Positions 3,674 through 26,149 of a DNA stretch of 31,162 nucleotides are shown piece after piece. The notes under the pieces are model-generated. The model did no database searches and was not told where the DNA came from. It worked only from the letters and a program-made list of their open reading frames with translations. The DNA lies in the NCBI GenBank assembly GCA_024232295.1, contig JAAEPT010000013.1, positions 1-31,162 on the forward strand, read 5' to 3'. Source of the stretch: Cytophagales bacterium. Lineage in GTDB: Bacteria > Bacteroidota > Bacteroidia > Cytophagales > JAAEPT01. How positions within the stretch are numbered: position 1 is the stretch's first letter; each line of letters starts with the position of its first letter. A program made the position numbers and the translations under genes.

Positions 3674-3679
3674 CATAAT

Positions 3680-6196: not shown

Positions 6197-6198
6197 GA

Positions 6199-6765: not shown

Positions 6766-6843
6766 AATCTCTTATTTGATAAAGCTTTCACTATTATTTG
6801 TTCGAATTTAAAAAAATTAGATGATATTTATCTATCAAACCCT

Positions 6844-6851
6844 ATTTTTGA
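6844..6851 (+). promoter_or_regulatory. Candidate Bacteroidetes-type -7 promoter box TATTTTTG for the 6885 operon
   Basis: It matches the TAnnTTTG -7 consensus of Bacteroidetes sigma-A promoters, about 34 nt upstream of ATG 6885. No clear -33 TTTG was seen. Confidence 0.25.
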
Positions 6852-6884
6852 AAGAATTTTATCTGATTGTTTAACTTTTAGTTT

Positions 6885-11061: not shown

Positions 11062-12570
11062 ATAATAATGATATAGCATTGGATTGGATGTTGTATTCAC
11101 CTTAACAGTAGACAAATCCATTTCACTTTTTCCAAAAGAAGTAATCAATAGCATTCCATCATTATTCAACCATTTTGTTTTTACATCATCAAAATGAAGA
11201 GACCTTAATGCCTTTTTTAATCCTTCTTTGTCCAGTGATTTATGACCAATCACAAAACCCCATTCTCCTAATGTAAGCACTTGATTATGAATTGGAGCTG
11301 TAGAAAACCCTGCAGATTCCATGGTGATATCAATACAATGAAATGCTTTGGTTGCAAACTGAGGCGAACCTGCTTGTGTAATAATTGCACCATTTGGTCT
11401 TAATTGATGATAACACAATTGATAAAATTCCTTAGAATACAACTTGGACAAATCAACAGATTTTGGATCTGGCAAATCCACAAAAATTGCATCATAAAAA
11501 TCTTTTGTTTGCTCTAAGAACTGAAAACCATCTTGATTAATAATTGTCAATTTTTCCGTTTCTAATGCTCCTTTGTTTAATGCTTTCAAAACAGGGTGAC
11601 TTCTTCCTATTTCTGTCATTTTAGGGTCTAAATCCACCATTGTAATTTTTTCTACAGATGGATATTTAAGCATTTCTCGAACAGCACAACCATCACCACC
11701 ACCCAAAATCAAAATATTTTTAGGCTGGTTTGCCATTTTCATCACAGGGTGTACTAATGGCTCATGATACAACCATTCATCTAGACTTGATAATTGCTGA
11801 TTACCGTTGATAAATAACCAATGATGGTCTTTCCATTGAGTAATGACAATTTTTTGATACTTACTTTGGTGTTGATAAATAATTTTTTCACGATAACGAG
11901 ATTGTTCACCGAACATCATAATAGGTTTAGCAAAGTAAATTCCAACAGCTAAAATAAGTGCAACTCCGAAACCCAATAATTGAAATAAGCGAAATCTAGA
12001 AATATGGCTTTTGAATCTAAAAAATAATAGAAATGCCACCAAGAAGTTAATTGCTCCCAATACAAATGGTGTATAAGTAAGCCCTAAGAATGGAATACCA
12101 ATAAAAGCAAAAAAACCTCCTCCTAGTAAACTACCAAAATAATCAACAGCCATTACAGAAGAGATATTTTCCCTTAAGTCTTGAAACTGTTCATTAATAC
12201 GAGTTACTAAAGGAATTTCCATTCCCACTAATAATCCCACAATAATACTTAGTAAATAAACAATAATTGCGGTGAACTCAGTAAGACCTGCTACAGTATA
12301 TACTACAATTGCAGAAAATGAAGAAAAAATGGATAACAGAAATTCTAAAATTAGAAATTTCTCTAATAACTTATCCTTAAAATATTTACTCAATTGACTA
12401 CCTAATCCCATTGAAAACATCATCACTGAAATAATCAATGTCCATTGTAATAGTTGGTTTCCCAAAAAATAAGATGCTAAAGTAGAAAGTGTGTATTCTG
12501 CTACAATTCCAGCAAAACCTGTAGCAAAAAGAGCAATCTTTAATAAATGTGATTTTGAATTTTGATTCAT
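11035..12570 (-). CDS. Membrane-anchored polyamine aminopropyltransferase (spermidine synthase-like), paralog 3
   Basis: LILGGGDGCAVREMLKY, TMVDLDP and FVDLPDPKS are SpeE motifs. The N-terminal half is multi-TM. Its 3' end overlaps the convergent oxidoreductase gene by 27 nt. Confidence 0.85.
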   Translation of the reverse strand: MNQNSKSHLLKIALFATGFAGIVAEYTLSTLASYFLGNQLLQWTLIISVMMFSMGLGSQLSKYFKDKLLEKFLILEFLLSIFSSFSAIVVYTVAGLTEFTAIIVYLLSIIVGLLVGMEIPLVTRINEQFQDLRENISSVMAVDYFGSLLGGGFFAFIGIPFLGLTYTPFVLGAINFLVAFLLFFRFKSHISRFRLFQLLGFGVALILAVGIYFAKPIMMFGEQSRYREKIIYQHQSKYQKIVITQWKDHHWLFINGNQQLSSLDEWLYHEPLVHPVMKMANQPKNILILGGGDGCAVREMLKYPSVEKITMVDLDPKMTEIGRSHPVLKALNKGALETEKLTIINQDGFQFLEQTKDFYDAIFVDLPDPKSVDLSKLYSKEFYQLCYHQLRPNGAIITQAGSPQFATKAFHCIDITMESAGFSTAPIHNQVLTLGEWGFVIGHKSLDKEGLKKALRSLHFDDVKTKWLNNDGMLLITSFGKSEMDLSTVKVNTTSNPMLYHYYLNGNWGMY

Positions 12571-12585
12571 TGCCTTAAAAAGAAA

Positions 12586-12619
12586 AATGGTAACTGTGCA
12601 AGTTACACAATTACCATTT
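12586..12619 (-). promoter_or_regulatory. Intra-operonic hairpin between the lipoprotein gene and SpeE-like paralog 3. The 9-bp stem AAATGGTAA/TTACCATTT encloses a nested GTAACT/AGTTAC mini-hairpin, followed on the minus strand by a TTCTTTTT tract about 15 nt before the ATG.
   Basis: Perfect inverted repeat 12586-12594 / 12611-12619. The inner repeat is 12592-12597 / 12600-12605. It looks like a terminator or attenuator. Confidence 0.4.
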
Positions 12620-12642
12620 CATTATACTTTGATATTATTAGA

Positions 12643-13389
12643 TTATTTACCAAATCCTCCACCGCTAGAACGGTAACTTCTGCTACTATTATAACGAGAA
12701 GTACCACGAGCAGAAGCTCTAGATCTTCTTGCTGAAGAAGATGAAGAAGACCATCCACTTTTATTTGCTCTACGAGAGAAGAAATCAGGACGCTTAGATT
12801 TATTGTAAGCACTATTTGTTCCATACTGAGGATTACTTACATTAGAACCATAGTAAGGACGACTTCCTCTGTATACACTAGAGTATGTACTGTAGTGATT
12901 ACGGTATACTCTACGAGAATGATCCATACCCAACATTGGAGACATATAAGAATAACGAGAATAGAAAATCCAAACTCCACCATTCCAAGAACCATAACGA
13001 GAGTTTCCAACATAACTATTGTATCCTGGAGGAGATGGTACTTTAGAAACTTTTCCATCTTCAGACTTAGAAGCTAACTCCATACCCAAATAATTTTCGT
13101 TTCTCCAGAAAAATGCTTTCGAAACTTTGATCTTATCTGTAGTCTTTTCGGTAATCTCATCACCTTTCTCTGTCAAAATCTTGTATTTATGATAGTATGT
13201 ATCAGAAAAAATACCTTCATCTACATCCATATCTTCTAAAATAATACTAAAAGATTTCTCATCCTTCATTTGCTTGATAAGCTTATCAACAGGAGTTTCT
13301 TTGTACTTAGGCCCACCACAGCTACATGAAGATAAAAAGGCTAAGCCCATAGAAATAATACTTAATAAAAATAAGTGTCTCATAATCAT
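12643..13389 (-). CDS. Lipoprotein with a Tyr/Ser/Arg/Gly-rich low-complexity C-terminal tail
   Basis: The signal peptide plus lipobox is LAFLSSCSCGG. There is a globular N-domain, and then YSRYSY...SSSSSARRSRASARGTSRYNSSRSYRSSGGGFGK. The biased codon repeats spawn spurious ORFs on both strands here. Confidence 0.7.
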   Translation of the reverse strand: MIMRHLFLLSIISMGLAFLSSCSCGGPKYKETPVDKLIKQMKDEKSFSIILEDMDVDEGIFSDTYYHKYKILTEKGDEITEKTTDKIKVSKAFFWRNENYLGMELASKSEDGKVSKVPSPPGYNSYVGNSRYGSWNGGVWIFYSRYSYMSPMLGMDHSRRVYRNHYSTYSSVYRGSRPYYGSNVSNPQYGTNSAYNKSKRPDFFSRRANKSGWSSSSSSARRSRASARGTSRYNSSRSYRSSGGGFGK

Positions 13390-13405
13390 TTATTAATCTA
13401 TAAAT

Positions 13406-13960
13406 TTAGTTTGCCACTGGAATGATATTCGAAATTTCAAACTCCTCGATATAAACACCTACAGAAGCTTCAATTTCGTATTCCCCCCAACGATCAATTC
13501 CAATGAATTTTTTTTCTGTTTGATCCAAAAACTCCCAATTTACTACTTTAGACCAACTATCATCATAATTTGGATCATCTTCCCAATCACGACAGTGCCC
13601 TAAATTTTCACTTGATAAGTAATAAGTTTCACCTTTATACTCAATTCGTTTCATTGGTTCATCATCCTCCACAATATCATGCTTTAAGTTTTTGTCAATA
13701 GACATGATATTCACTTTTTCAGAGATAGATAATTCCAACTCATCTTCATCAGCTACATACAAATAACGAACTTCATCTCCGCTATCTAGCTTGTATTCTT
13801 TTGCATAAAAGTTATTTCCCCAGTCATACTCATAAATCTCCTTTACTTGCCATGACTTTAAGAAGTAGTCAATAAAGTCTCCTTCTTGTAAATTGCGAAC
13901 AGTAACCTCCCCTCTAGAAGGCTTCTCTTCCTTTTTATTGAAAAAATCAAATAAACCCAT
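13406..13960 (-). CDS. Hypothetical acidic cytoplasmic protein (184 aa); first gene of the second three-gene cassette
   Basis: N-terminus MGLFDFFNKKEEK, then TVRNLQEGDFIDY...YDWGNNFYAKEYKLDSGDE. No TM. It lies 16 nt upstream of the lipoprotein gene on the same strand. Confidence 0.65.
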   Translation of the reverse strand: MGLFDFFNKKEEKPSRGEVTVRNLQEGDFIDYFLKSWQVKEIYEYDWGNNFYAKEYKLDSGDEVRYLYVADEDELELSISEKVNIMSIDKNLKHDIVEDDEPMKRIEYKGETYYLSSENLGHCRDWEDDPNYDDSWSKVVNWEFLDQTEKKFIGIDRWGEYEIEASVGVYIEEFEISNIIPVAN

Positions 13961-14036
13961 AAATTTTCCTTTTTAAACTTAGACGAAAGATAACAAATAT
14001 TTTTTTGTATCTTGTTTTTTTTAAACGAAAAAATAG

Positions 14037-14435
14037 ATGAACAAACCCGAAAAAAATCTTGGGCAACATATTCTTGCTGAATTTTATGAGTGTGATGCTG
14101 ATATATTGAATGATGTCGATTTTTTGGAAAAGACATTTAATGAGGCATCAGAGGCAGCAAATGCAACAATTGTAAAATCTGTATTTCACCCTTTTTCACC
14201 TGTAGGTGTTACAGGAGTAGTTGTAATCATGGAGAGTCATATTTCTATTCATACATGGCCTGAGTTTGGTTATGCGGCAGTAGATTTTTTCACATGTAGT
14301 GATAAAATGCAATATCAGAAAGCATATGACTATATCGCAAACAAGTTAAAATCAAAAAATCACACTTCTCAAAAAGTAGAAAGAGGTTTTCCTCAGCATC
14401 TCAAAGAAACACACTTAATGAATAGTATATTATAA
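14037..14435 (+). CDS. speH: S-adenosylmethionine decarboxylase proenzyme, pyruvoyl-dependent, small SpeH/class 1 type
   Basis: HILAEFYECD and VVIMESHISIHTWPE are present. The predicted self-cleavage site is Glu-Ser at nt 14232-14237. Size is 132 aa. Confidence 0.9.
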   Translation: MNKPEKNLGQHILAEFYECDADILNDVDFLEKTFNEASEAANATIVKSVFHPFSPVGVTGVVVIMESHISIHTWPEFGYAAVDFFTCSDKMQYQKAYDYIANKLKSKNHTSQKVERGFPQHLKETHLMNSIL

Positions 14436-14445
14436 GAAGGAAGAT

Positions 14446-15243
14446 TTACTCTTCCTTTTTTTCATTTAAGTTATTTAGTCTATCCAATAAAGTTTGGACT
14501 TGCTTTTCTAATTGTACAACTCGGTACTCAATATTTTTAGTTTTCTTAAAAAATGTAGTGTACCTACCACAAAGCTCCCAAACTTCCAATACTTCATTTT
14601 TTCCAAGTTCCATGGTATCATAAGTAATATTATCAGCTTTTAATGAAATCAAGTGGTCAACAGATACAACTCGTCTTGTAAAAACACCATGGTTCGCAAC
14701 AAAAACATAGACTCTATTTAATTCAATATCTCGAATATCAACAGATTTTGTAATTAGAATATCACCATTATACATTCCACCACTATCCATCAACATTTCA
14801 CTACCTTTCAATTCAAAAGCACGAACCCTTCCTTCTGAAATTCTTTCTGGAAATTCAACAATTGGTAGTTTTGAGATATAATCCATTACCTTACATTTAT
14901 TACAGTAATCCTTATATTCTTTAATTTTTACCAAAGGAATACTCTTTTCTGTATGAACTTTCTTTTCTTTTTCTGAAGCTACAGAAGAAGACAATGCCTT
15001 TCTCTCTTTAAATATATCAAAATGATAAACATCATTTACCGTCAGCTCTTTTGTAAGCAAATCACCAATTGCTACTCCAAAATGATTGGCTATTTGAATA
15101 ATTGTATCAATTTTGGGATCAGCTCTTCCTTCTTCATAAGCTCCAACACTTGTACGAGCAAGGTCAAATTTTTTGGCAAATGCTGCTTGACTTAGCTTTC
15201 TAACTGTACGAATCTTTCGTATATTCTTACCTATATATGACAT
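14446..15243 (-). CDS. XRE-family HTH transcriptional regulator with a C-terminal S24 (LexA/CI-like) peptidase-fold domain and a coiled-coil tail
   Basis: The N-terminal IRKIRTVRKLSQAAFAKKFDLARTSVGAYEEGRADPKIDTIIQIANHFGV is a Cro/C1 HTH. ELKGSEMLMDSGGMYNGDILI resembles the LexA GDSM...GDLV core. It is divergent from the yjfI/pspA-like operon. Confidence 0.75.
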   Translation of the reverse strand: MSYIGKNIRKIRTVRKLSQAAFAKKFDLARTSVGAYEEGRADPKIDTIIQIANHFGVAIGDLLTKELTVNDVYHFDIFKERKALSSSVASEKEKKVHTEKSIPLVKIKEYKDYCNKCKVMDYISKLPIVEFPERISEGRVRAFELKGSEMLMDSGGMYNGDILITKSVDIRDIELNRVYVFVANHGVFTRRVVSVDHLISLKADNITYDTMELGKNEVLEVWELCGRYTTFFKKTKNIEYRVVQLEKQVQTLLDRLNNLNEKKEE

Positions 15244-15552
15244 ATTTCAAAGATAATCTATTTTTTTTGACATCAAAATCCGCTAAAGGAAACAAATAGC
15301 CAACATTTTGAGATTATCTATGTTTTTTTAGAAATTATTTTGCCAATATTTTTGGATATTCCAGTTTTCTTAGTACCTTTACAATGTCAAAAGGAAATAA
15401 CGGGAACAAAATGAAGAAAAATACATACAAAAGCAGTCACCCTCCATAACTTAGAGCCCTGCTGTTTTATAAAAATTTAAAATTGAATATTTGGATTTCG
15501 TTTAGTAACTTAAAACAAGTATTTAGAATTTTTAAAATAAACACAAAGAATC

Positions 15553-15948
15553 ATGGAAAGTAACTTTTTAAAAGTAAAAGATTACATTTTAGAATTACAG
15601 TACGATATCGTACACGAAAGTGCAGAAGATGGGGTATTCGTAATCAACAAAGCAACTGAAGGAATTTCAAACTTAGTTATCTGTTGTGCAGAACCTATCT
15701 TAATTATTGAACAGTTTTTGTTTGAGTTATCAGGAGATGCAAGTGCTATTCACAAAGAGCTCCTACAAAAAAGCAGAGATATTATCCACGGAGCTTTCGT
15801 ATTAGACGAAACAGGAACAAAAGTAATCTACCGTGATACTTTGCAATTAGAAAACCTTGACCTTAATGAATTAGAAGGGACATTTAACTCTCTTGCCGTT
15901 TTATTAAGTGAATATGGTGATAAAATTATCGAATTTTCCAACAATTAA
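15553..15948 (+). CDS. Small acidic cytoplasmic protein; YjfI-like (T3SS-chaperone-like fold) partner of PspA, assigned by size and position
   Basis: 131 aa, no TM, placed 11 nt upstream of the PspA-family gene. This matches the E. coli yjfI-yjfJ arrangement (YjfI is 133 aa). Sequence-level family assignment was not verified. Confidence 0.45.
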   Translation: MESNFLKVKDYILELQYDIVHESAEDGVFVINKATEGISNLVICCAEPILIIEQFLFELSGDASAIHKELLQKSRDIIHGAFVLDETGTKVIYRDTLQLENLDLNELEGTFNSLAVLLSEYGDKIIEFSNN

Positions 15949-15959
15949 AATTTAAGACT

Positions 15960-16676
15960 ATGAACATATTTAAAAGATTATTCAAAATTGGTGAAGCTGA
16001 AGCTCATTCTGCAGTAGATAAATTAGAGGATCCTATCAAAATGACGGAACAAGGTATCCGTGATATGAAAAAAGATTTAGATAAAAGTTTACATGCATTA
16101 GCTGAAGTGAAAGCATTAGCAATTCGTTCTAAAACTGATTTAAATTCATATAGAAGTAAAGTTTCTGACTACGAGAAAAAAGCAATGGCTTTATTACAAA
16201 GAGCTGAGCTTGGTCAAGTTTCTCCAGAAGAAGCTGATCGTTTAGCATCTGAAGCTTTGGTTAAAAAAGAAGAGAGCCAAGGTCAAGTAGATAGATTATC
16301 TTCTGAGCAAGCTACTTATGATAAGCAAGTTGGTCAGTTAGAGGCAAGTGTAAGAACAATTCGTTCAAATATTAGTAAGTGGGAAAATGAGTTGAAAACA
16401 TTGAAAGCTCGTGTAAAAGTAAGTTCTACTACTAAAAACTTAAACAAGCAATTAGCTCAAATTGATTCTACTAGCACAGTAGCTATGTTAGAAAAAATGA
16501 AGAACAAAGTTGCTGAAGAGGAAGCTTTAGCTGAGTCTTATGGAGAAATCGCAAACGCTAGTAAGAGTGTTGACGATGAGATTGACAAAGCATTAGAAGG
16601 TTCTGCTGAAGTAAAAGCACATGATTCATTAGCTGCATTAAAAGCGAAGATGGCTGCCAACAAATCTAACCTATAA
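15960..16676 (+). CDS. PspA/IM30 (phage shock protein A / Vipp1 / ESCRT-III superfamily) protein, YjfJ-like
   Basis: The N-terminal MNIFKRLFKIGEAEAHSAVDKLEDPIKMTEQGIRDMKKDL is the typical PspA family start. The whole 238 aa is heptad coiled-coil with a low-complexity C-terminus. Confidence 0.85.
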   Translation: MNIFKRLFKIGEAEAHSAVDKLEDPIKMTEQGIRDMKKDLDKSLHALAEVKALAIRSKTDLNSYRSKVSDYEKKAMALLQRAELGQVSPEEADRLASEALVKKEESQGQVDRLSSEQATYDKQVGQLEASVRTIRSNISKWENELKTLKARVKVSSTTKNLNKQLAQIDSTSTVAMLEKMKNKVAEEEALAESYGEIANASKSVDDEIDKALEGSAEVKAHDSLAALKAKMAANKSNL

Positions 16677-16691
16677 TAGAAGGTTATATAA

Positions 16692-17444
16692 TTGACATTT
16701 TTAAAAAAGTCCAATACATTGCACGCCAATGGTTGGGCTTTTTTTACCCTAATTTTTCCAAGTTATATGATAGAACTATTCAAGTACTCTTTTGCCTACA
16801 TCAATTTAATACCTACTTGCCTGTTACTTTTAACCCTTATCTATTGGTTTTGCACAATATTAGGAGCATTAGATTTAGGTTTTTTGGATTTTGACCTTGA
16901 ACCAGATGGTGAAATAGATGTAACTATGGATGTTGAAATCAGTGGACCAAATGTTGAAGTTGATTCAGAAACAGGAAGTATTCCTGTTGGCTATTCTATA
17001 CTAGGTTTTTTCAACATAGGAAAAATTCCTTTTATGCTGTTCTTTACATTACTTTCCACTCCTATGTGGTTCATTTCAATTGTAGGAAATTATTACCTAG
17101 GAATTGAAAACTTTGTTTTATCATTAGCCCTATTAGCTGGTAACTTTTTTGTCAGTATGCTAATCGCAAAATTTATTAGTACTCCATTTGTTTATATTTT
17201 CAAAAAAATGGCAGAAAATGAAGAAGACTCTTTTACTCCTATAGGAAAAGTATGTACAGCAAAATATACTATCGATTCATCATCGTATAGTCAAGCCATT
17301 GTGATTGGCAAAAATGGAGCTGATCATATTATTACAGTCAAAACCTATGAAGGAAAAGAAATCAAAAAAAATGAACATGGCTTGGTAATAGAACATGATG
17401 AAGAAAATAACTTCTATACGGTTGAACCACATCAAAAATTGTAA
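16692..17444 (+). CDS. NfeD/YqiJ-like membrane protein: N-terminal TM helices plus a C-terminal beta-rich OB-like domain
   Basis: It has hydrophobic helices, then KVCTAKYTIDSSSYSQAIVIGKNGADHIITVKTYEGKEI. It sits immediately upstream of the flotillin gene, as in E. coli yqiJ-yqiK. The true start may be an internal Met such as 16767. Confidence 0.55.
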   Translation: MTFLKKSNTLHANGWAFFTLIFPSYMIELFKYSFAYINLIPTCLLLLTLIYWFCTILGALDLGFLDFDLEPDGEIDVTMDVEISGPNVEVDSETGSIPVGYSILGFFNIGKIPFMLFFTLLSTPMWFISIVGNYYLGIENFVLSLALLAGNFFVSMLIAKFISTPFVYIFKKMAENEEDSFTPIGKVCTAKYTIDSSSYSQAIVIGKNGADHIITVKTYEGKEIKKNEHGLVIEHDEENNFYTVEPHQKL

Positions 17445-17483: not shown

Positions 17484-19649
17484 ATGAACCTTTATCTTTT
17501 ACAAGCATCAATGCTCGAAAATGCGGGATTGACAATAGCACTTATTGTTGTCTTTTTCTTTGTAGGATTTATTGCTTTTATCCTCAAAATGTATAAAAAA
17601 TCTTCTCAAGGAGAAGCAATTGTACGTACAGGTATGGGAGGTACCAAAGTATCTTTTAGTGGAATTTTTGTCTTTCCTGTTATTCATCAAATGGAAAGAA
17701 TGGATATTACATTGAAAAAAGTAACTATTTCTCGTCAAGGAAAAGATGGACTAATCTGTAGAGACAACTTAAGAGCAGATATCCAAGTAAATTTCTTCAT
17801 TCGTGTAAATAACAATGAACCTGATGTTAACAAAGTAGCTAAATCTATTGGTTGTAAACGTGCATCTGACCCAACTGCTCTTATTGAATTATTTGATGCA
17901 AAGTTTTCAGAAGCATTAAAAACAGTAGGTAGACACTTTGATTATGTAGACTTATACAATTCTCGTGAAGAATTCAACAAGAAAATCACAGAACAAATCG
18001 GAAAAGATTTGAATGGTTATGGTTTAGATGACTGTGCTATTGATTACCTAGAACAAACTCCAATTAGTTCATTAGATGAACAAAACATCTTAGATTCTGA
18101 AGGTATCAAGAAAATAATTGACCTTACTTCTGAAGAGAAAATCAAAGCAAACTTGATTCTTCGTGACAAAGAAAAAACAATTAGACAACAAGATGTTGAA
18201 GCAAGAGAGACAATCTTAGAGTTAGATAGACAACTTGCTGAAAAAGAAGAGAAACAACATAGAGAAATTGCAAATATTAAAGCAGTTGAAGATGCTGAGA
18301 AAATTCGTGTAGAACAAGAAGAACGATTAAAAGCAGAACAAGCTCGTATCTCTACACAGGAAGCATTAGGAATTTCGGAAGAAAACAAAATGCGTGAAAT
18401 CTTAATTGCTCAAAAAAATAAAGAAAAAACTGTTGCTGTTGAAAACGAACGTGTAGAAAGAGAAAAGCAGTTAGAAGAAACTGAACGTTTAAGAATTGTG
18501 GAATTAGCACAAATCGAAAAAGAAAAAGCTCTTGAAGAAGAACGTAAAAACATTCAAGATGTAATTCGTGAACGTGTAATTGTAGAGAAAGCAGTAGTTG
18601 AAGAAGAAGAAAAAATCAAAGATACTAAAGCTTTAGCTGAAGCTGACCGTGAAAAAGATGTTGCGTTAAAAGAAGCAGAAAAAGATGCTCAAGAAGCCTT
18701 AATTAGACAAACAAAACAAGCAGAGGCTTCTAAGCAAGCTGCTGAATTTAGAGCTAAACAAGTTCAAATCGAAGCAGAAGCAGAACAAACTTCTGCCTTG
18801 AAGAAAGCAGAGGCAATCAAAGTATTAGCTGATGCAGAGGCTTCTAAACAAGCTGCTGTTGGTTTAGCTGAGGCTCAAGTAATGGAAGCAAAAGCAGAAG
18901 CAAAAGAAAAAGAAGGTGAAACTGAAGCAAGAGTATTAGAGCTTAATGCTCTGGCTGATGCGAAAGGTATTCGTGAACGTTCTCTTGCTCAAGCTGAAGC
19001 TGATCTACAAATCGGACAGGCTGATGCACAAGTTATTGAAGCAAGAGCAAGTGCTGAAGAGAAAAAAGGATTAGCTGAAGCCAAAGTACTTCAAGAAAAA
19101 CTAGCTTCTGAAGCTAAAGGTATTGAAGAGAAAGCTGCTGCTATGCAGAAATTGGATGGTGTAGGTAGAGAGCATGAAGAATTCAAATTACGCCTAGAGA
19201 AAGAGACAAAAGTAGATTTAGCTCATATTCAAGTTCAAAAGGATATTGCAGAAGCACAAGCAACTGTATTAGCTGAAGCAATGAAATCTGCTAAAATTGA
19301 TATTGTTGGTGGTGAACCAGTAATTTTTGATAAGATTATGGGTGCTATTGCTAAAGGAAAATCTATTGATAGATTAGTAGATAACAGTAAAACTGTAGAG
19401 CAAATCAAAGACACTTTCTTTGACACTTCTAATGGTGGTTCTTTCAAAGAAAACTTAGCAAACTTCATTGACCAATTCAACATTGACTCTGAAACAGTTA
19501 AGAATTTAAGTGTAGCTACATTACTCAACACATTATCAAAGGAACATGAAAGTGATCCAGCAAAAATCAAACAATTAGAAGAGTTTGGAAAAATTGCTAA
19601 TGTATTGGGAATAGCTAATCAAGCAATTGGAAGCTTAGGTATTCTTTAA
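17484..19649 (+). CDS. Flotillin family (SPFH/band-7) protein with a long Ala/Glu/Lys-rich coiled-coil
   Basis: It has an N-terminal TM and an SPFH core (GGTKVSFSGIFVFPVIHQMERMDITLKKVTISRQGKDGLICRDNLRADIQVNFFIRV). Extensive EA-repeat coiled-coil follows (about nt 18150-19200). Confidence 0.9.
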   Translation: MNLYLLQASMLENAGLTIALIVVFFFVGFIAFILKMYKKSSQGEAIVRTGMGGTKVSFSGIFVFPVIHQMERMDITLKKVTISRQGKDGLICRDNLRADIQVNFFIRVNNNEPDVNKVAKSIGCKRASDPTALIELFDAKFSEALKTVGRHFDYVDLYNSREEFNKKITEQIGKDLNGYGLDDCAIDYLEQTPISSLDEQNILDSEGIKKIIDLTSEEKIKANLILRDKEKTIRQQDVEARETILELDRQLAEKEEKQHREIANIKAVEDAEKIRVEQEERLKAEQARISTQEALGISEENKMREILIAQKNKEKTVAVENERVEREKQLEETERLRIVELAQIEKEKALEEERKNIQDVIRERVIVEKAVVEEEEKIKDTKALAEADREKDVALKEAEKDAQEALIRQTKQAEASKQAAEFRAKQVQIEAEAEQTSALKKAEAIKVLADAEASKQAAVGLAEAQVMEAKAEAKEKEGETEARVLELNALADAKGIRERSLAQAEADLQIGQADAQVIEARASAEEKKGLAEAKVLQEKLASEAKGIEEKAAAMQKLDGVGREHEEFKLRLEKETKVDLAHIQVQKDIAEAQATVLAEAMKSAKIDIVGGEPVIFDKIMGAIAKGKSIDRLVDNSKTVEQIKDTFFDTSNGGSFKENLANFIDQFNIDSETVKNLSVATLLNTLSKEHESDPAKIKQLEEFGKIANVLGIANQAIGSLGIL

Positions 19650-19669: not shown

Positions 19670-19707
19670 GCCTGATATTTCCTTTTGGGGAGTATCAGGC
19701 TTTTTTT
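19670..19707 (+). terminator. Rho-independent terminator-like hairpin between flotillin and the giant ORF (stem GCCTGATA/TATCAGGC, 15-nt loop, then T7)
   Basis: Perfect 8-bp inverted repeat 19670-19677 / 19693-19700, followed by TTTTTTT at 19701-19707. Confidence 0.6.
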
Positions 19708-19737: not shown

Positions 19738-22700
19738 ATGAACGAAGAAAACATACAATTAGAAGGAGGTACATACGAAATTCTCAAAAATCGTTTACTG
19801 CAAGAAGGTTCTCAACTTCGAGAAAAACTACAAGACCTTAATATTGCTAGACAAGATGTATTTGGAGCTATTCAAACACAGCTTATATCAAATGAGCGTA
19901 TTACCACAGAAAACAATTGTATTCCTTGGGATATGTGCCCTATCCACAATCGTTTTCTATTTGGATACAATGTTTTTTTAGGATTAAAGACAGAAATTAA
20001 ATTAAGTGATGTTTTTAGTTATTATGAATACCAAGACCATCAATTCCACCAAGAAGAATTAAAAATATTAGAAGATGATAATTTTCTAAGTGATTTTAAT
20101 AATCTATATAAGTATTATAAGAGCGCTCAATTTGTACGATTTTTTAAGCGAGACTTGTACTTATACATGATTTTTAGAATCAGTAAAGAAGTTAATGATA
20201 TCAAAGCCTTCAAATGGGAAATTGGTAGTGATGGCTCATTAACTTATATAGATGCTAGAAGTGATCATGAAATCAAATATCCTGCACAGCATGAGTTTAG
20301 TTGGAAAAAAACAACTCGTGAGATGCATAGAAAAGGATTACACCCTCACATCTCTATAGAAGATAAAATTTTTGTAGAAACAATTGGTGGAGATTTAACA
20401 ATTAAAGTTGAGGATAATACAAATATTGGTAAAGGTATCTTCTCAGAAGCAGTTAAGAATCCAGGACAGACATTAGATGATGCAGAGTTTAATTATGCAA
20501 TTATTGATAATCTAATTGTCTTGAGAGTCAAACCTTATCAAGAAAATGAGTATCGCTATATTGTTTATAATGAAAAATTACAAGAGGCAAAAAGAATTGA
20601 TGCTCTAAAAGAATCTTGTATTTTCTTACCTGAGGGTCATGGACTAATCTTCGCCAATGGTTATTACCTACAAACTGGTGAATTCAAACTTTTCGACCAT
20701 GATCTAAAGAATTTATTGTTTGAAAGACAAATCTCATCTCCTAATGGTGAAGATTATCTATATGTCTTTTACAATCGTCTACATGGTATTTACTTATTAT
20801 TGTCTTATAATATCATTGAACAAACAATTAGTACCCCTATCATTTGTCATGGTTATGCCATCTTTGATAATGGAGAATTGTGTTATTTTAAAGCAGATGA
20901 AGAGGCTAAAAAACATCACAGTATTCAAATTTGGCAAACCCCTTATATTCATTCTGATTTTGAAATTCAAGCTAATAAAGAGTCTTATTTATATAAAATA
21001 GGAAATAAGGATATTGTGAAGGCAATGGCTGATGCTCATGGTATTCTAAACTTATTAGATAAAGACGATAGTTATGGTAATCTGTATTTGGATATTCTAA
21101 AAGAATCAAATGATACACTAGATTCTCATTATTGGTTAACTAGTGAAGAAGCCTTCAATTTAGCAGAGCCAATTACTGAGATTAAAAATACAGCAAAGTC
21201 TGCTATTGATGAGTTTGAAAAAGTTCTAACAATTCGTAAAAACACAACTCAACGAATTCAGGAAGTTAGTCAAGAAACAGAAAGCTTATTACAAGAAGTT
21301 AGACGTTCTACTCCAAAACATATTGACGAATATGTTCAATTTTTAGGAAAATTACGTTTAGCAAGAGGTGAGGTCATTTCCCTTAAAGAATTACGTTATA
21401 CAAACTTACCTCTCATTGACAAACTAGAGGAAGAAGTTGCTCAAGCTAGTGCAAACACTTCTGAAGGTTGTGTTAAGTTTTTAGTAAAAAAAGAAGCACT
21501 ACAACCTTATGAACAAAAAGTAGAAGATATTAATCAAACGATTGATAAACTTGAAAAAGTTATTGATGCAACAAGGATTGAAGAAAAAATTGATGCTACT
21601 TCCAAAGAATTAGAATTATTGATTGAGATTGTGAGTAATCTAAAAATTGAAGATGCTACACAAACTACTCAAATCATTGATAATATTTCAGCTATTTATG
21701 CTCGTTTCAATCAAATTAAGGTTTCCTTAAAAAGAAAAAAGAAGGAATTACAGAGTGTAGAAGGTAAAGCTGAATTTAATGCTCAACTCAAATTAATTCA
21801 ACAAGGCCTTATCAACTATCTTGATGTATGTGATAAACCAGAAAAATGTGATGAATATTTAACCAAATTAATGGTTCAGCTTGAGGAATTAGAAAGTAAA
21901 TTCTCTGAATTTGATGAGTTTATTGAACAAATTACTATCAAGCGTGAAGAGGCTTATAATGCTTTTGAAGCCAAGAAAGTTGCTTTAATTGAAGCAAGAA
22001 ACAAACATTCAAATGCTCTTTTAAATTCTGCTAATCGTATTTTGAAGTCTGTACAAAATCGTGCAAAAAACTTCAAAGAACTCAATGAAATCAATGGTTA
22101 TTTTGCCTCTGACTTAATGATTGATAAGGTCAGAAATGTAGTTGAGGAATTAGTAGAAATTGGAGATACTGTAAAAGCTGACGATATTCAGAGTCGTTTA
22201 AAATCTACACAAGAAGATGCTATTCGTCAATTGAAAGATAAGCAAGAGTTATTTGTAGATGGTGAAAATGCAATTCAATTAGGAAGTCATAGTTTCCTTG
22301 TTAATAAACAAAGCCTTACCTTAACAATTGTTCCAAGAAATGAAGAATTATCTTTTCATTTGACTGGAACAAACTTCTTTGAAAAGATTAAAAATGAAAA
22401 ACTAAATAGTTATCAACATTTTTGGGAACAAGATTTAGTTTCAGAAAACAAAAAAGTATATCGTGGAGAATATTTAGCTTATCAAATCTTTTTGGAGGCT
22501 AAAGAAAAGAAAGAGCTTCTTCAACAATTAGCTCAATCTACTGAGAAAGAAAACCTACAATTTGTACAACAGTTCATGTCTGTTCGCTACAATGAGGGAT
22601 ATATCAAGGGAGTACATGATGTTGATGCTGATAAAATATTAGGGCAACTAATACAGCTTTATCAAACAGCTGATTTACTTCATTATTCTTCTGATTCAAG

Positions 22701-25206
22701 AACCTTAGCAAAACTATGGTGGACTGAATTTCTAGAAGAAAGCATCAAAAAGGATTTTGATCAACAATTAAAAGGTGCTGGTTTATTATTACAAGTTTTT
22801 CCACAGAACACAGCTTTTGAAGAATTAAAAGAAGAACTTCAACAAGCAATTCAGCCTTTTGTTGAAGAAAGTGCTTTGTTTGATGTAAGTAGTATTGAAG
22901 AAGCAATTGATTATCTTTTTGATGAATGTACAAGAGGAAATCAGTTTATCATACATTATGAAGCTCATAAAGTTTGTCAAGATTTCATACAGTATCTTAA
23001 AGAGCATCAACAAGAAAAAATATTCCAAAAGTCTATTGATGGACTAAAAGGAAATAAAATAGCTCAATACCAGTTGATAAAAAATTGGGTTCTTGCTTTT
23101 GTGGGCTCTCACTCACTTGATTGTAATGAACACTTGAATGAAATTGCTTCTTGTTTGTTCTCACAAAATCACAATGGTAATCAAGTTATTCATACACAAT
23201 TACAAACAACTATTGAAGGTTTACAAGGGAATCATGATACCATTGTAAAACAAGCTTATGCACTTCATTATAATCAATTTATTCAGAAAATGGAGCATTA
23301 TGTCTCGCATACTGTTCCTGAATACTTGCATTATATTCAACTGAAAAAAGACTTAACTCAGCAATTTGAAGCAGAACTACGACTCAATGAGTTTAAGCCT
23401 CGTGTGATGAGTTCTTTTGTTCGTAATGAATTACTTGATAAGGTTTATTTACCAATTATTGGAAATAACTTAGCCAAACAAATGGGTACTGCTGGAGCAA
23501 ATAAGCGTACTGATTTGATGGGTATGTTGCTCTTGCTCTCTCCTCCTGGATATGGTAAAACAACTTTAATGGAATACATTGCCAATCGTTTGGGCTTGAT
23601 TTTCATGAAAATTAATGGTCCTGCTATTGGTCATCAAATTGTTTCGCTTGACCCTGCTGAAGCTCAAAATGCTGGTGCAAAAGAAGAATTGAAAAAGCTA
23701 AACCTTGCTCTTGTAATGGGAGACAATGTAATGCTTTATTTAGATGATATTCAGCACTGTAATCCTGAGTTTTTACAGAAGTTTATTTCTCTTTGTGATG
23801 CTCAACGAAAAATTGAAGGGGTTTATAAAGGACAACCTAAAACCTATGACTTTAGAGGGAAAAAAGTAGCTGTTGTAATGGCTGGTAACCCATACACAGA
23901 AAGTGGTGATAAGTTCCAAATTCCAGACATGCTTGCCAACCGTGCAGACATCTACAATTTGGGAGATATTTTGGGTGATTCAGAAAATGCCTTTAAATTA
24001 AGTTATTTACAAAACTGTCTTACTTCCAATGCTGTATTAAGTAAAATTGCGAGTAAAACACCAAAAGATGTTTTGACTTTGGTGCGTATTGCAGAAACAG
24101 GAAGTCAAGAAAACATCAACTTTGAAGGAAATCATTCTAAAGCAGAAATTAATGAATATCTTTCTGTTGTTAAAAAGTTATTAACAATACGAGATGTGGT
24201 TCTAAAAATGAATTTGGCTTATATTGATTCTGCTGCACAAGCTGATGAATACAGAACAGAGCCTCCTTTCAAGCTTCAAGGTTCTTATCGTAATATGAAT
24301 AAATTAGCAGAAAGAGTGGTTCCAATCATGAATGATGATGAATTACAAACGTTGATTATTTCTCATTATGAAAATGAAGCTCAAACATTAACTACTGGTG
24401 CAGAAGCCAATTTATTAAAGTTTAAGGAGTTAGTTGATATTTTGAGTGAAGAGGAAATATTAAGATGGGAAGATATCAAAAAGACCTTTGCAAGAAATAA
24501 TAAATTAAAGGGGATTGGGGGCGAAAGTTTTGGACAAATTCTATTACAAATGGAATCTATTTCTGAAGGACTTTCTTCTATTAGTCATCAATTAAAAGAT
24601 CGAAACAACTCTTCTACTCCTACTATGACTAATACAGAAGTTCCTCAAAATACTTCAATTGTTGTAGAACAGGAAACAAATGAAGAATTGGTAGGTATTT
24701 TGAAAGTTTTGCAGGAAAATCAACAAAAGATTGTTACTGAGTTGGTAGAGCAAAAAGACATTCAAGACCAACAATTGCATAAGGTTCAACAAAAGGAAAT
24801 TGCTGAACACAAACAAAAAGAAGAACAAGAAGCTCTTTTAGAAAAGGTTCTTAAAGAAGAAAAAGAAAAACTAAGTGTACTAAGGAATCAATTGACAGTA
24901 GCTATCAAAGAAAAAATTCTGATTGAAGATACAGAAGATAGTCACTTTAGCTATTTATTTGCTTTCGAAAACAAGACTGAACAGAAGATCAAAGGTTTTG
25001 TAGGAACATTAGAATTCAGAAGTAGTGAAGGTATCATTGTGCATAACCTTAGTGTTAGCTATGAGGAAGGCATTGAACCTTTGGGTACTGTGCAATGGGA
25101 AGCACAAATGGAATTCAATCCATTCTTAGAAAAAGACATTCTTTTGAAAAATATGAGTATTGATGAACTACAAACAATATGGATTCCTAAGAAAATCCTC
25201 TTTTAG
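19738..25206 (+). CDS. Giant 1822-aa protein with an internal MoxR/AAA_5-like AAA+ ATPase domain (about aa 1240-1450) and long coiled-coil regions
   Basis: It is a single uninterrupted ORF. Walker A is LLLSPPGYGKTTLMEY (nt 23541-23570). Walker B is VMLYLDDIQHCNPEFL (nt 23733-23780). The NP motif VAVVMAGNPYTE (nt 23870-23900) is typical of MoxR/dynein-related AAA+. There are coiled-coil stretches (aa about 480-760, about 1640-1720) and a beta-rich C-terminus. Confidence 0.8.
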   Translation: MNEENIQLEGGTYEILKNRLLQEGSQLREKLQDLNIARQDVFGAIQTQLISNERITTENNCIPWDMCPIHNRFLFGYNVFLGLKTEIKLSDVFSYYEYQDHQFHQEELKILEDDNFLSDFNNLYKYYKSAQFVRFFKRDLYLYMIFRISKEVNDIKAFKWEIGSDGSLTYIDARSDHEIKYPAQHEFSWKKTTREMHRKGLHPHISIEDKIFVETIGGDLTIKVEDNTNIGKGIFSEAVKNPGQTLDDAEFNYAIIDNLIVLRVKPYQENEYRYIVYNEKLQEAKRIDALKESCIFLPEGHGLIFANGYYLQTGEFKLFDHDLKNLLFERQISSPNGEDYLYVFYNRLHGIYLLLSYNIIEQTISTPIICHGYAIFDNGELCYFKADEEAKKHHSIQIWQTPYIHSDFEIQANKESYLYKIGNKDIVKAMADAHGILNLLDKDDSYGNLYLDILKESNDTLDSHYWLTSEEAFNLAEPITEIKNTAKSAIDEFEKVLTIRKNTTQRIQEVSQETESLLQEVRRSTPKHIDEYVQFLGKLRLARGEVISLKELRYTNLPLIDKLEEEVAQASANTSEGCVKFLVKKEALQPYEQKVEDINQTIDKLEKVIDATRIEEKIDATSKELELLIEIVSNLKIEDATQTTQIIDNISAIYARFNQIKVSLKRKKKELQSVEGKAEFNAQLKLIQQGLINYLDVCDKPEKCDEYLTKLMVQLEELESKFSEFDEFIEQITIKREEAYNAFEAKKVALIEARNKHSNALLNSANRILKSVQNRAKNFKELNEINGYFASDLMIDKVRNVVEELVEIGDTVKADDIQSRLKSTQEDAIRQLKDKQELFVDGENAIQLGSHSFLVNKQSLTLTIVPRNEELSFHLTGTNFFEKIKNEKLNSYQHFWEQDLVSENKKVYRGEYLAYQIFLEAKEKKELLQQLAQSTEKENLQFVQQFMSVRYNEGYIKGVHDVDADKILGQLIQLYQTADLLHYSSDSRTLAKLWWTEFLEESIKKDFDQQLKGAGLLLQVFPQNTAFEELKEELQQAIQPFVEESALFDVSSIEEAIDYLFDECTRGNQFIIHYEAHKVCQDFIQYLKEHQQEKIFQKSIDGLKGNKIAQYQLIKNWVLAFVGSHSLDCNEHLNEIASCLFSQNHNGNQVIHTQLQTTIEGLQGNHDTIVKQAYALHYNQFIQKMEHYVSHTVPEYLHYIQLKKDLTQQFEAELRLNEFKPRVMSSFVRNELLDKVYLPIIGNNLAKQMGTAGANKRTDLMGMLLLLSPPGYGKTTLMEYIANRLGLIFMKINGPAIGHQIVSLDPAEAQNAGAKEELKKLNLALVMGDNVMLYLDDIQHCNPEFLQKFISLCDAQRKIEGVYKGQPKTYDFRGKKVAVVMAGNPYTESGDKFQIPDMLANRADIYNLGDILGDSENAFKLSYLQNCLTSNAVLSKIASKTPKDVLTLVRIAETGSQENINFEGNHSKAEINEYLSVVKKLLTIRDVVLKMNLAYIDSAAQADEYRTEPPFKLQGSYRNMNKLAERVVPIMNDDELQTLIISHYENEAQTLTTGAEANLLKFKELVDILSEEEILRWEDIKKTFARNNKLKGIGGESFGQILLQMESISEGLSSISHQLKDRNNSSTPTMTNTEVPQNTSIVVEQETNEELVGILKVLQENQQKIVTELVEQKDIQDQQLHKVQQKEIAEHKQKEEQEALLEKVLKEEKEKLSVLRNQLTVAIKEKILIEDTEDSHFSYLFAFENKTEQKIKGFVGTLEFRSSEGIIVHNLSVSYEEGIEPLGTVQWEAQMEFNPFLEKDILLKNMSIDELQTIWIPKKILF

Positions 25207-25217
25207 ATAATAAAAAG

Positions 25218-25260
25218 AAACCCCTTGACCAAATTAGAATTAAGGGGTTTTTTATTTTTT
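25218..25260. terminator. Bidirectional rho-independent terminator between the convergent giant ORF and the OM protein gene
   Basis: AAACCCCTT (25218-25226) pairs with AAGGGGTTT (25242-25250) around a 15-nt loop, followed by TTTTTATTTTTT. An A-run lies upstream for the opposite strand. Confidence 0.7.
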
Positions 25261-26149
25261 AGTCTTCTTTATTAAGAAGAAATCGATAAGCCATTCGTAT
25301 TTGAAAACCTGTTCTAAAGTCAGTATTTATATTATTTTCTAGCGTTCGTTGATCGTTAGCAATTGAACCAACCACTGACCACAAAGATGGATAATCCTCA
25401 TAACGTGAATAATCCTTGATTGCATAAACAAATATAGCTTGTAATATCAATGTTTCATTCAAAAGATCAATTTGAATATAAGGCAAAATATCACGAGTAT
25501 TCACATGATAGTAAGCGTTTTCATATTGTGTTTGATTAAAACCAAGATTTGTAGCTCTTACTGTTGTTCCCACTCTAATATTTTTATAAAAGCGATAATT
25601 CATATCCAGATACATTGGTAAATAATAATCAAATTCCCAACGTTTCTTTGGAGAGCGATAATAAAAACCTAGTATTGGTGTGAAGTTATTTCCATAGGCT
25701 TCTGTTGTATAGTATGCTCCAAAACGCCAAGTGAAATAATCATTCTTCTTGTAAGAACTTACTGTCCAAGCACCTAATTGATAAGCATCACTTCCTGCAT
25801 TTAAATCAGAAGCAATCTTAGGCAAGAAAATAAAGTTAGAAGACCACTTCTCAGAAAACTTATAATTTAGTCCCAACTGTAAAGTAAAAGAGTATAAACT
25901 AATTTTTTCATCATCACCAATTGAATTGGCTACATTGTGGTATGCTTGATCAAGACCTGTAATAATAGCTACATCATCATTAATGACAATAGGGGCTTTT
26001 AACTTCAAACTTTGATATTGTACTACATCATCTCCTGTATCTACTTGCTCATAATAGGCACGAACAAGACTCACATAATCTTGAGCAAAAATAAAAGTAC
26101 TTGTAAATAAGAAAAATGATAAAAATGAGATAATTCTATACATAGGCAT
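25259..26149 (-). CDS. Putative outer-membrane beta-barrel protein with signal peptide
   Basis: The signal peptide is MPMYRIISFLSFFLFTSTFIFAQD. It shows alternating aromatic/hydrophilic beta-strand pattern and is Tyr/Asn/Gly-rich, 296 aa. Confidence 0.55.
   Translation of the reverse strand: MPMYRIISFLSFFLFTSTFIFAQDYVSLVRAYYEQVDTGDDVVQYQSLKLKAPIVINDDVAIITGLDQAYHNVANSIGDDEKISLYSFTLQLGLNYKFSEKWSSNFIFLPKIASDLNAGSDAYQLGAWTVSSYKKNDYFTWRFGAYYTTEAYGNNFTPILGFYYRSPKKRWEFDYYLPMYLDMNYRFYKNIRVGTTVRATNLGFNQTQYENAYYHVNTRDILPYIQIDLLNETLILQAIFVYAIKDYSRYEDYPSLWSVVGSIANDQRTLENNINTDFRTGFQIRMAYRFLLNKED

Follow-up and report, generated by a model that had tools for sequence, protein, structure and literature searches.

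SPFH proteins form closed membrane cages or domes, as exemplified by the flotillin 44-mer (PMC13000311) and by the HflK/C 24-mer, an SPFH cage (as cited in PMC10936438). In B. subtilis, an SPFH protein is required for bringing PspA to the membrane (PMC8581546). Bacteria are considered to have no Vps4-like regulator of PspA (PMC7619361). Ravi et al. (2024) described an operon encoding a CesT-domain protein, PspA, a YqiJ-like protein, a flotillin and an ATPase, for which they proposed chaperone-like, ESCRT-like membrane dynamics (PMC11237479). Two further papers, on a P. aeruginosa SPFH protein and on a flotillin-associated rhodopsin, do not mention the giant ATPase in their main text.

We analyzed a window of 31,162 nucleotides from a Cytophagales bacterium, in which these five genes are found in the order CesT, PspA, YqiJ-like, flotillin and ATPase (Table 1). 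The last encodes a giant protein that is a member of the catalogued, experimentally uncharacterized DUF3686-AAA+ family of PMC11237479, whose members have its Pfam domains in identical order, align with it end to end and lie in a matching operon. It differs from that family in having an extra C-terminal extension of about 185 residues, made of a coiled coil and a β domain, and in that its operon forms part of a larger cluster of polyamine genes. Because the architecture and the operon were already published, the novelty implied by a preliminary description of this DNA was overstated. No experimental work on any family member was found in the literature searched.

Table 1. Positions of the genes, domains and motifs discussed in the text
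Feature	Nucleotides	Strand	Residues	Remarks
HTH_3 + Peptidase_S24 (LexA/CI-like) regulator	14446..15243	-		divergent; Pfam
CesT/Tir-like chaperone-domain protein	15553..15948	+		Pfam CesT_Tir_1, E=4.7e-51
PspA/IM30 (ESCRT-III superfamily) protein	15960..16676	+		Pfam, E=2.7e-41
YqiJ/NfeD-like 3-TM protein	16692..17444	+		acidic loop, C-terminal β domain
Flotillin-type SPFH/Band_7 protein	17484..19649	+	721 aa	Pfam Band_7
Terminator-like hairpin + T-run	19670..19707	+		between flotillin and giant genes
Giant ATPase gene	19738..25206	+	1822 aa	DUF3686 + DUF7902 + AAA+ family
DUF3686 region	19816..21132	+	27-465	helix aa 10-42, then β-propeller-like domain aa ~48-400
Helical-bundle/coiled-coil region	21163..22251	+	~476-838	contains DUF7902
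DUF7902 (PF25472)	21493-21747	+	586-670	Pfam, E=2e-28
Small β unit	22270..22386	+	845-883	predicted in both structure models; moderate conservation
All-α domain	22462..23382	+	~909-1215	model pLDDT ~90
AAA+ α/β core	23524..23967	+	1263-1410	Pfam, alignment, AF2 model
Walker A GYGKTT	23548-23565	+	1271-1276	Lys = K1274
Walker B LYLDD	23734-23748	+	1333-1337	D1336-D1337
Pre-sensor-1 β-hairpin			1359-1370	between α3 and β4; AF2 model
Sensor GNP	23884-23892	+	1383-1385	sensor-1 N1384
Candidate Arg finger			R1402	in AAA+ core
Enlarged helical lid/C-terminal helical region	23968..24597	+	~1411-1620
C-terminal extension	24655..25203	+	~1640-1822	clade-specific

The giant gene is real and intact, as had been proposed from its length. 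It starts with ATG and its only stop codon is the terminal one, compared with 122 to 238 stops in each of the other five frames. The chance of 1822 stop-free codons, computed from the base composition of the window, is about 1e-64. According to BLASTP, the protein aligned with a 1655-aa Pontibacter protein in one segment (residues 4-1636, 1633 columns, 61% identity). This unbroken collinearity with homologues ruled out a frameshift or fusion artefact. An identical database protein carries the name "AAA family ATPase [Cytophagales bacterium]."

The family comprises at least 4601 homologues and 447 clusters at 50% identity, from at least 10 phyla. Identity to the window protein was 55 to 74% for the 120 closest matches and 26 to 49% for full-length representatives of the 50% clusters. 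The same precomputed Pfam set was found in all 120 homologues among the matches listed. Members also occur in Flavobacterium, Proteus mirabilis, Vibrio campbellii, Streptomyces, Deinococcus and the Pseudomonas fluorescens plasmid pQBR103.

We then surveyed 80 related loci, with denominators of 59 to 62 for individual genes. These loci came from Bacteroidota, Planctomycetota, Verrucomicrobiota, Kiritimatiellota, Desulfobacterota, Omnitrophota and Clostridia. A flotillin gene lay immediately upstream of the giant gene in 59/62 loci, and a YqiJ/NfeD-like membrane gene was present in 55/61, the order on one strand being YqiJ-like, flotillin and giant gene. Linkage to these two genes is thus near-obligate. 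The same order is annotated on the Pseudomonas plasmid pQBR103, and in Deinococcus the giant gene follows genes that correspond in size and order. Many loci have intergenic gaps between -11 and 60 nt, as would fit cotranscription. At three loci, no flotillin was found within 7.4 kb. In several Bacteroidota, unrelated genes were inserted between flotillin and the giant gene; these insertions were heterogeneous among loci, which ruled out a conserved extra gene at this position. The preliminary description had asked whether the giant gene always co-occurs with the PspA-like/flotillin pair. This held for flotillin but not for PspA, which was found in only 23/59 loci, all of them in Bacteroidota. 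CesT was found in 20/59 loci, and the CesT-PspA module was likewise restricted to Bacteroidota, as was the HTH-S24 (LexA-like) regulator kept alongside it. Modules of polyamine, DUF4178 and DUF350 genes, themselves linked to PspA, recurrently adjoined the family loci, and pseudouridine synthase and ribosomal protein S1 genes were other metabolic or housekeeping neighbors.

In the window, the YqiJ-like protein itself had no Pfam match and probably has its true start at M26 (nt 16767). Among 15 orthologues, YqiJ_N was matched in 6/15 and NfeD in 1/15. The palindromes AGATAATCT and AGATTATCT are candidate operators of the HTH-S24 regulator. The terminator-like hairpin reported earlier between the flotillin and giant genes does exist: a 14-bp stem at 19670-19700 is followed by T7 (dG of -21.6 kcal/mol, z = -5.5), none of 200 shuffled sequences folded equally well (0/200), and its end lies 30 nt before the ATG of the giant gene. 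A conserved terminator at this position was nevertheless unsupported, since a comparable hairpin was present in only 5/40 related flotillin-giant intergenic regions; in many relatives, the gap was 9 to 60 nt or the two genes overlapped. The preliminary description took the hairpin to suggest lower or separate expression of the giant gene, which is a tentative reading.

Outside the ATPase module, the protein had been described as lacking any other recognizable domain. This is not the case. DUF3686 (PF12458) matched over profile positions 2-448/448 with E=1.4e-188, scoring 627 bits where the cut-off is 25, and DUF7902 was also found. Structure prediction of the N- and C-terminal segments, proposed earlier as a check, gave a propeller, helical bundles, the small β unit, the all-α domain and a β domain in the tail, and the earlier view of the remainder as coiled coil plus beta-rich regions agrees with the predicted secondary structure. 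The β-propeller-like domain has about 26 strands in the AF2 model (pLDDT 80-92), and the N-terminal domain matched WD40, paraoxonase, prolyl-oligopeptidase and clathrin-terminal-domain propellers in Foldseek with a probability of ~1.0. The N-terminal 1200 aa are collinear in one stretch with representatives of 1600 to 1930 aa. Within the core, conservation is lowest in the all-α domain, with 19 to 38% identity to the query over aa 921-1200. No Pfam match was obtained in aa 840-1221 or in the C-terminal tail. In the predicted structures, the nonenzymatic propeller and helical bundles account for about 1200 residues of a core of ~1640. The C-terminal extension consists of a disordered linker, a long helix (aa 1650-1718) and a β domain (aa 1719-1821, model pLDDT ~90). 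It is missing in typical members of 1640 to 1660 aa, and only five others among the fetched proteins have it. When the β domain was used as the sole query, the homologue search gave no match and missed even the parent protein, so that it carries no information. From lineage to lineage, family members carry different C-terminal tails, some with TPR repeats, ankyrin repeats or Lys-rich stretches.

The ATPase module is a single one, about 1260 aa from the N terminus, and AAA_5 was its best full-length Pfam match (profile positions 2-125/139, above the gathering score), in line with the single buried AAA_5-like module of the preliminary description. The positions given there for Walker A and GNP were exact; the Walker B motif was also correct, but its coordinates (23738-23752) were off by 4 nt. 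The AF2 model, with a confidence of only 55 to 80 in the core, contains an αβα core and a helical lid, β4 ending with the polar sensor-1 residue and α4 with the candidate Arg finger. The core is extremely conserved, with 72 to 88% identity across phyla. In an alignment of 28 sequences, the Walker A motif SPPGYGKTT was invariant, and the second acidic residue of Walker B was an invariant Asp instead of Glu, with the Mg-binding Asp kept. This invariant Asp-Asp could point to slow hydrolysis and to a switch rather than a processive motor. The sensor-1 and Arg-finger residues were also invariant in the family, which suggests that hydrolysis matters. An invariant QGSYR in the lid is a candidate sensor 2. 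The pore-loop-1 position holds an invariant G-H; the lack of an aromatic residue there is at odds with a classical threading unfoldase.

No solved relative was found in the PDB by sequence searches with the whole protein or with a profile of the 28 AAA+ sequences; the only matches, to p97/Cdc48 and RuvB, covered about 40 residues at the P-loop. Having one AAA+ module and not six concatenated ones, the protein is not of the dynein/midasin type, the alternative named in the preliminary description, and no described function was found in the literature searched. It resembles the MoxR/AAA_5 clade (CbbQ, NorQ and RavA) in its pre-sensor-1 β-hairpin. However, the model shows a coil and a continuous α2 (aa 1312-1330) that lacks an inserted β-hairpin, although this is weak negative evidence because confidence is only moderate. 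Among window ORFs of 80 aa or longer, none gave a match to a VWA domain, the domain of the MoxR partner protein. Unlike Vps4 and other classical AAA proteins, whose PDB matches cover only the P-loop stretch, the giant ATPase has neither an MIT domain (no Pfam match) nor aromatic pore loops, and it is about 4 times larger than Vps4. Its linkage to PspA is lineage restricted, whereas that to flotillin is general. The resemblance to Vps4 acting on ESCRT-III is an analogy at most. As in FtsH with HflK/C, the partners of the AAA+ enzyme are an SPFH-family scaffold and an NfeD-type protein. However, the giant ATPase has no transmembrane anchors or protease domain, its SPFH partner belongs to the flotillin subfamily, and it is unrelated to FtsH outside the AAA+ fold.

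Our favored reading is that the giant ATPase uses ATP to remodel or switch flotillin/PspA membrane assemblies in partnership with YqiJ/NfeD, a proposal that we consider evenly balanced between right and wrong. It draws on the synteny and often tight linkage with flotillin and YqiJ-like genes, on the β-propeller and long helical bundles as interaction modules, on the absence of any nuclease, DNA-binding or transmembrane domain in Pfam, on the rigid, collinear architecture, on the published work on the operon, SPFH cages and PspA cited above and on the recurrent adjacency of PspA-linked modules. Against it, gene linkage does not reveal the substrate, and the Asp-Asp Walker B, the nonaromatic pore loop, the three loci without a nearby flotillin, the genes inserted in several Bacteroidota and the limited AF2 confidence in the AAA+ core count as well. 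What we infer about oligomerization, docking surfaces, substrate identity and the direction of the reaction is the following. A cytoplasmic mechano-enzyme with a single AAA+ module would work with the flotillin and YqiJ/NfeD membrane pair encoded upstream and, in Bacteroidota, with the CesT-PspA pair as an additional partner. With its propeller and helical stalk of about 420 residues, it would dock to the flotillin/NfeD assembly from the cytoplasmic side, or else to PspA polymers. Its AAA+ modules would oligomerize, and ATP binding and hydrolysis would drive assembly, disassembly or turnover of the scaffold under envelope stress. Its functional counterpart might be Vps4 on ESCRT-III or FtsH inside the HflK/C cage. 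Because PspA is absent from the neighborhood in most phyla, a Vps4-like action on PspA cannot be the general function of the family. It is conceivable but doubtful that the family supplies the missing ATP-driven remodelling of flotillin cages and, where PspA is coencoded, of PspA/ESCRT-III polymers as well; it would then be a functional Vps4 analogue of bacteria, built independently by combining a propeller and a coiled-coil stalk with a nonclassical AAA+ module whose Walker B is Asp-Asp.

Other functions were weighed. The ATPase could act on clients and not on scaffolds, as a chaperone that extracts or refolds proteins trapped in flotillin microdomains, for instance membrane proteins that are unfolded or mis-inserted; this would liken it to FtsH in the HflK/C cage, minus the protease domain, and seems to us unlikely. 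It could also be mainly structural, a nucleotide-gated scaffold or tether that forms a sub-membrane lattice or connects flotillin domes with other structures, with AAA+ as an ATP-binding assembly switch and not a motor. The Asp-Asp Walker B, the large share of propeller and helical bundles, the lineage-variable tails and the top Foldseek matches, among them coat or scaffold proteins that combine a propeller with helices (such as clathrin heavy chain, IFT-A and nucleoporins), agree with such a role. However, those matches had very low TM-scores (0.07-0.14) over the propeller part only, and the invariant sensor 1 and Arg finger suggest that hydrolysis matters; a scaffold or tether appears quite improbable.

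An anti-phage or abortive-infection membrane defence, with the large ATPase as sensor or effector, was suggested by the frequency of large multidomain ATPases in defence islands, the phage-shock-related name of PspA, the CI/LexA-like regulator adjoining the operon and the few family copies on megaplasmids. However, PADLOC gave no specific match (the sole one was generic AAA, E=1.7e-4), a search of 2.9 million viral contigs turned up no family member, the neighbors are metabolic or housekeeping genes, and the fixed gene order and strong cross-phylum conservation are unlike those of fast-evolving defence genes. A defence system was thus rejected as very improbable. The name "DNA repair ATPase," used by NCBI for the family, in many database records and in the Pfam description of DUF3686, has the least credibility, and we give that function hardly any weight. 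Weak RuvB_N matches at the P-loop fit with it, and the S24-type regulator could in principle sense DNA damage. However, the RuvB matches span about 50 residues with 21 to 25 bits, against curated NCBIfam cut-offs of 282 to 299; Pfam finds no domain for DNA binding, nuclease or helicase activity; the gene context is consistently one of membrane proteins; and no paper backing the name was found in the literature searched. The name is misleading and deserves correction.

For flotillin/SPFH assembly, its turnover and its coupling to PspA-type membrane repair, the giant ATPase is the obvious candidate energy source. As the family is present in tractable organisms, the hypothesis that it remodels these membrane assemblies is directly testable.

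The giant ORF (19738-25206, plus strand) starts with ATG and contains 1822 codons with one stop, the terminal one, and the remaining five frames contain 122 to 238 stops across the same span. Given the base composition of the window, the probability of 1822 codons without a stop is about 1e-64. A database protein named "AAA family ATPase [Cytophagales bacterium]" is identical to the product, and a 1655-aa Pontibacter protein aligned with it over residues 4-1636 as one near-ungapped segment with 61% identity. A frameshift or fusion artifact was therefore ruled out, and the gene is real, as the preliminary description had held. This observation was confirmed and is in itself not new; its interpretation was partly right. 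The protein, previously taken as unclassified, belongs to a family already catalogued and described computationally, of which it is a new member bearing a clade-specific tail. The Walker A motif GYGKTT (nt 23548-23565) and the GNP sensor (nt 23884-23892) had been placed exactly; the Walker B motif LYLDD is present, but lies 4 nt further upstream than first given, at nt 23734-23748.

Pfam searches identified DUF3686 (PF12458, residues 27-465, E=1.4e-188) and DUF7902 (PF25472, residues 586-670, E=2e-28), so that most of the protein is recognizable and the earlier statement that no other domain could be recognized was wrong. The single AAA+ module gave only weak matches (AAA, AAA_5, RuvB_N, and AAA_22, within residues 1251-1387), in agreement with its previous AAA_5-like assignment. 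Two AlphaFold2 models, from 40-sequence alignments, covered residues 1-900 (pLDDT 82.9) and 840-1822 (pLDDT 80.1). Sequence and profile searches of the PDB returned just the P-loop stretches of p97/Cdc48 and RuvB and no solved close relative. The AAA+ core is the most conserved region of the protein, yet it had the lowest pLDDT (55-80; nt 23524-24000, residues 424-580 of the second model), and values were high (~90) in the all-α domain, which is poorly conserved, and in the clade-specific β tail. This pattern may reflect low sequence variation within the alignment, or a structure that depends on the state of nucleotide or oligomer.

Features of the window (nt), of the AlphaFold2 models of the giant ATPase (aa), and of related loci
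Feature	Position	Strand
K+ channel, Ion_trans_2 + TrkA_N	2600-3673	
Pfam-negative ORF	3680-4426	
Spermine-synthase-like paralogue	4423-5979	-
Pfam-negative ORF	6199-6765	-
Spermine-synthase-like paralogue	6885-8414	+
Pfam-negative ORF	8414-9529	
Amine oxidase	9526-11061	
Spermine-synthase-like paralogue	11035-12570	-
Pfam-negative ORF (248 aa)	12643-13389	-
DUF4178	13406-13960	-
AdoMet decarboxylase	14037-14435	
HTH_3 + Peptidase_S24 regulator, LexA/CI-like	14446-15243	-
CesT_Tir_1 protein	15553-15948	+
PspA	15960-16676	+
3-TM protein (YqiJ-like)	16692-17444	+
Flotillin/Band_7	17484-19649	+
Pfam-negative ORF	25259-26149	-
N-terminal helix	aa 10-42	
β domain (propeller), ~26 strands	aa 48-400	
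Long helical bundles	aa 417-838	
Small β unit	aa 845-883	
All-α domain	aa 909-1215	
AAA+ α/β core	aa 1263-1410	
Pre-sensor-1 β-hairpin inside core	aa 1359-1370	
Helical lid, enlarged	to ~aa 1620	
Disordered linker between lid and 70-residue helix		
70-residue helix	aa 1650-1718	
C-terminal β domain	aa 1719-1821	
Module downstream of giant gene	L006:12662-16624	
Module downstream of giant gene	L007:7084-10886	
Module downstream of giant gene	L009:4687-9388	
Module downstream of giant gene	L057:6277-10196	

The family comprises at least 4601 proteins at E<1e-5, typically 1640-1660 aa long and usually named "DNA repair ATPase" (NCBI) or "MoxR-like ATPase" (JGI). With the N-terminal 1200 aa as the query, 447 clusters were found at E<1e-30 among 1.84 billion cluster representatives. 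Full-length matches of 1600-1930 aa aligned as one stretch, indicating that the family architecture is rigid. When one genome per species was scanned, at least 565 loci with the giant gene were found, in Bacteroidota, Planctomycetota, Verrucomicrobiota, Kiritimatiellota, Desulfobacterota, Omnitrophota, and Clostridia. Plasmid and chromid records added Gammaproteobacteria (Pseudomonas pQBR103, Proteus, Vibrio, Photobacterium, and Halomonas), Deinococcota, and Actinomycetota; no member was found in viral contigs.

In the window, the CesT_Tir_1, PspA, 3-TM, flotillin, and giant genes follow one another on the same strand, and the regulator gene is divergent from them. This very operon has been described as CesT/Tir-PspA with a YqiJ/YuaF 3-TM protein among its partners, its PspA-less abbreviated forms being more widespread (Ravi et al. 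2024, PMC11237479). Iterated profiles of the window proteins were compared with the ORFs of 80 related loci, counting those with sufficient upstream DNA. Flotillin was encoded directly upstream of the giant gene in 59 of 62 loci, and a YqiJ-like gene was present in 55 of 61; the three loci without flotillin had unrelated neighbors. PspA (23/59), CesT (20/59), and the S24 regulator (20/58), which accompanies the CesT-PspA module, were found in Bacteroidota only. Therefore, the conserved partner of the giant ATPase is the flotillin/YqiJ pair, and PspA/CesT is a lineage-specific addition. Of the co-occurrence with PspA and flotillin raised in the preliminary description, the flotillin part held in nearly all loci and the PspA part in Bacteroidota only; the counts confirm and quantify the wider spread of PspA-less operons.

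The 3-TM protein of the window had no Pfam match, and its orthologues matched YqiJ_N (6 of 15) or NfeD (1 of 15). Its listed TTG start is probably too far upstream, the likely start being nt 16767 (Met26); the residue corresponding to Met26 (MxEL...) is the first one in all 14 YqiJ-like orthologues (14/14). This family has a C-terminal β domain and, following its first TM helix, a striking acidic loop, D-x-D-x-D. The gap between the flotillin and giant genes was -11 to ~240 nt in most loci, and larger gaps hold heterogeneous inserted genes. In several Bacteroidota, the insertions are unrelated small genes (L002:5990-7460, L024:5957-7364, L046:5810-7478, L062:6454-7472, L018:6853-7484, and L019:6733-7415), some for small proteins with signal-peptide-like N termini and others short unclassified ORFs. 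The giant gene thus tolerates separation from flotillin, and it may have its own promoter in these loci. The terminator-like hairpin reported in the window is real (19670-19700 followed by T7; dG -21.6 kcal/mol, z = -5.5), but such hairpins occurred in only 5 of 40 flotillin-giant gene intergenic regions. Between the regulator and CesT genes (15244-15552), two small palindromes lie 60 nt apart, each followed by a T-run (AGATAATCT at 15251-15268 and AGATTATCT at 15311-15328); they are candidate operators.

A polyamine-type cluster (2600-14435), with genes for the K+ channel, the spermine-synthase-like proteins, the amine oxidase, DUF4178, and AdoMet decarboxylase, lies directly upstream of the PspA-flotillin-ATPase operon. 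Its three spermine-synthase-like paralogues, of ~510 aa and TM-fused, have a ~270-aa N-terminal region followed by a Spermine_synth domain. Ravi et al. 2024 (PMC11237479) connect such polyamine themes with CesT-PspA, but in distinct operon classes; in the window these themes directly adjoin the flotillin/AAA+ class, forming one ~23-kb supercluster. In four further Bacteroidota loci, the giant gene is directly followed by a module of DUF4178, an unknown 248-aa protein, and a spermine-synthase-like protein. On the Pseudomonas fluorescens plasmid pQBR103 (L081:351-11485), the order is DUF2491, DUF350, DUF1190, glutathionylspermidine synthase, hypothetical, SPFH, and "DNA repair ATPase." The association of polyamine genes with flotillin/ATPase therefore recurs across phyla in differing arrangements. 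Five window ORFs (188-371 aa) had no Pfam match, and in other loci the 248-aa one is found together with DUF4178 and the spermine-synthase-like gene.

The AAA+ modules of 28 sequences, whose loci were assigned to seven phyla, were aligned. Invariant throughout were the Walker A motif SPPGYGKTT, the Walker B motif DDIQH (aa 1336-1340, nt 23743-23757), AGNP of sensor 1, QGSYR of the lid, and R1402, which occupies the Arg-finger position. Walker B was Asp-Asp and never Asp-Glu (28/28), and the pore-loop-1 position had an invariant Gly-His and no aromatic residue. DnaA has a similar DD Walker B. The Asp-Asp and Gly-His residues argue against a classical threading unfoldase and suggest a slow or switch-like ATPase rather than a threading motor. 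Among 74 full-length homologues, identity with the query was 72-88% in the AAA+ core, ~50-70% in the propeller, 19-38% in aa 921-1200, and ~3% in aa 1640-1822. The C-terminal ~185 residues form a clade-specific extension common only to five fetched homologues (P0002, P0003, P0004, P0006, and P0126). Comparison of giant-gene 3' ends (loci L020, L026, L028, L030, L032, L045, L064, and L072) showed other tails in other lineages: a QLxxFxxGLxxI helix in one to three repeats, a helical element (VVNKIPxSLLxVLxxQFxLMxxWMxP) in Planctomycetota, TPR repeats (L028 and L072), ankyrin repeats (L032), or Lys-rich stretches (L026, L030, L045, and L064). The tails look like exchangeable adaptor modules.

With the gene linkage, domain anatomy, and ATPase constraint established, the best-supported reading, to which we give about an even chance, is an ATP-driven remodeller or switch that acts on membrane assemblies of flotillin/NfeD and, in loci that also encode PspA, on this protein too. 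The ATPase would dock through its propeller and helical stalk; we infer that it oligomerises, and also infer its docking surfaces, its substrate, and the direction in which it acts. Flotillin assembles into a 44-mer dome attached to the membrane (PMC13000311), and HflK/C into a 24-mer cage (as cited in PMC10936438). In B. subtilis, PspA depends on an SPFH protein for its recruitment to the membrane (PMC8581546), and bacteria are regarded as lacking a Vps4-like PspA regulator (PMC7619361).

A chaperone directed at a client is an unlikely alternative to such a remodeller, and a scaffold gated by nucleotide is slightly less likely again. A role in defence is improbable, and PADLOC was negative. 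The family name notwithstanding, a DNA repair ATPase is the least credible reading: RuvB models matched 49 residues only, at 21-25 bits against cut-offs of 282-299, and no DNA-related domain was present, so the "DNA repair" label has no support. A literature search on DUF3686, PF12458, and "DNA repair ATPase" with flotillin found no paper and no experimental study, consistent with the earlier remark that the function had not been described. As the energy source that drives flotillin/PspA membrane systems in bacteria, the family is nonetheless a strong candidate, and a testable one.
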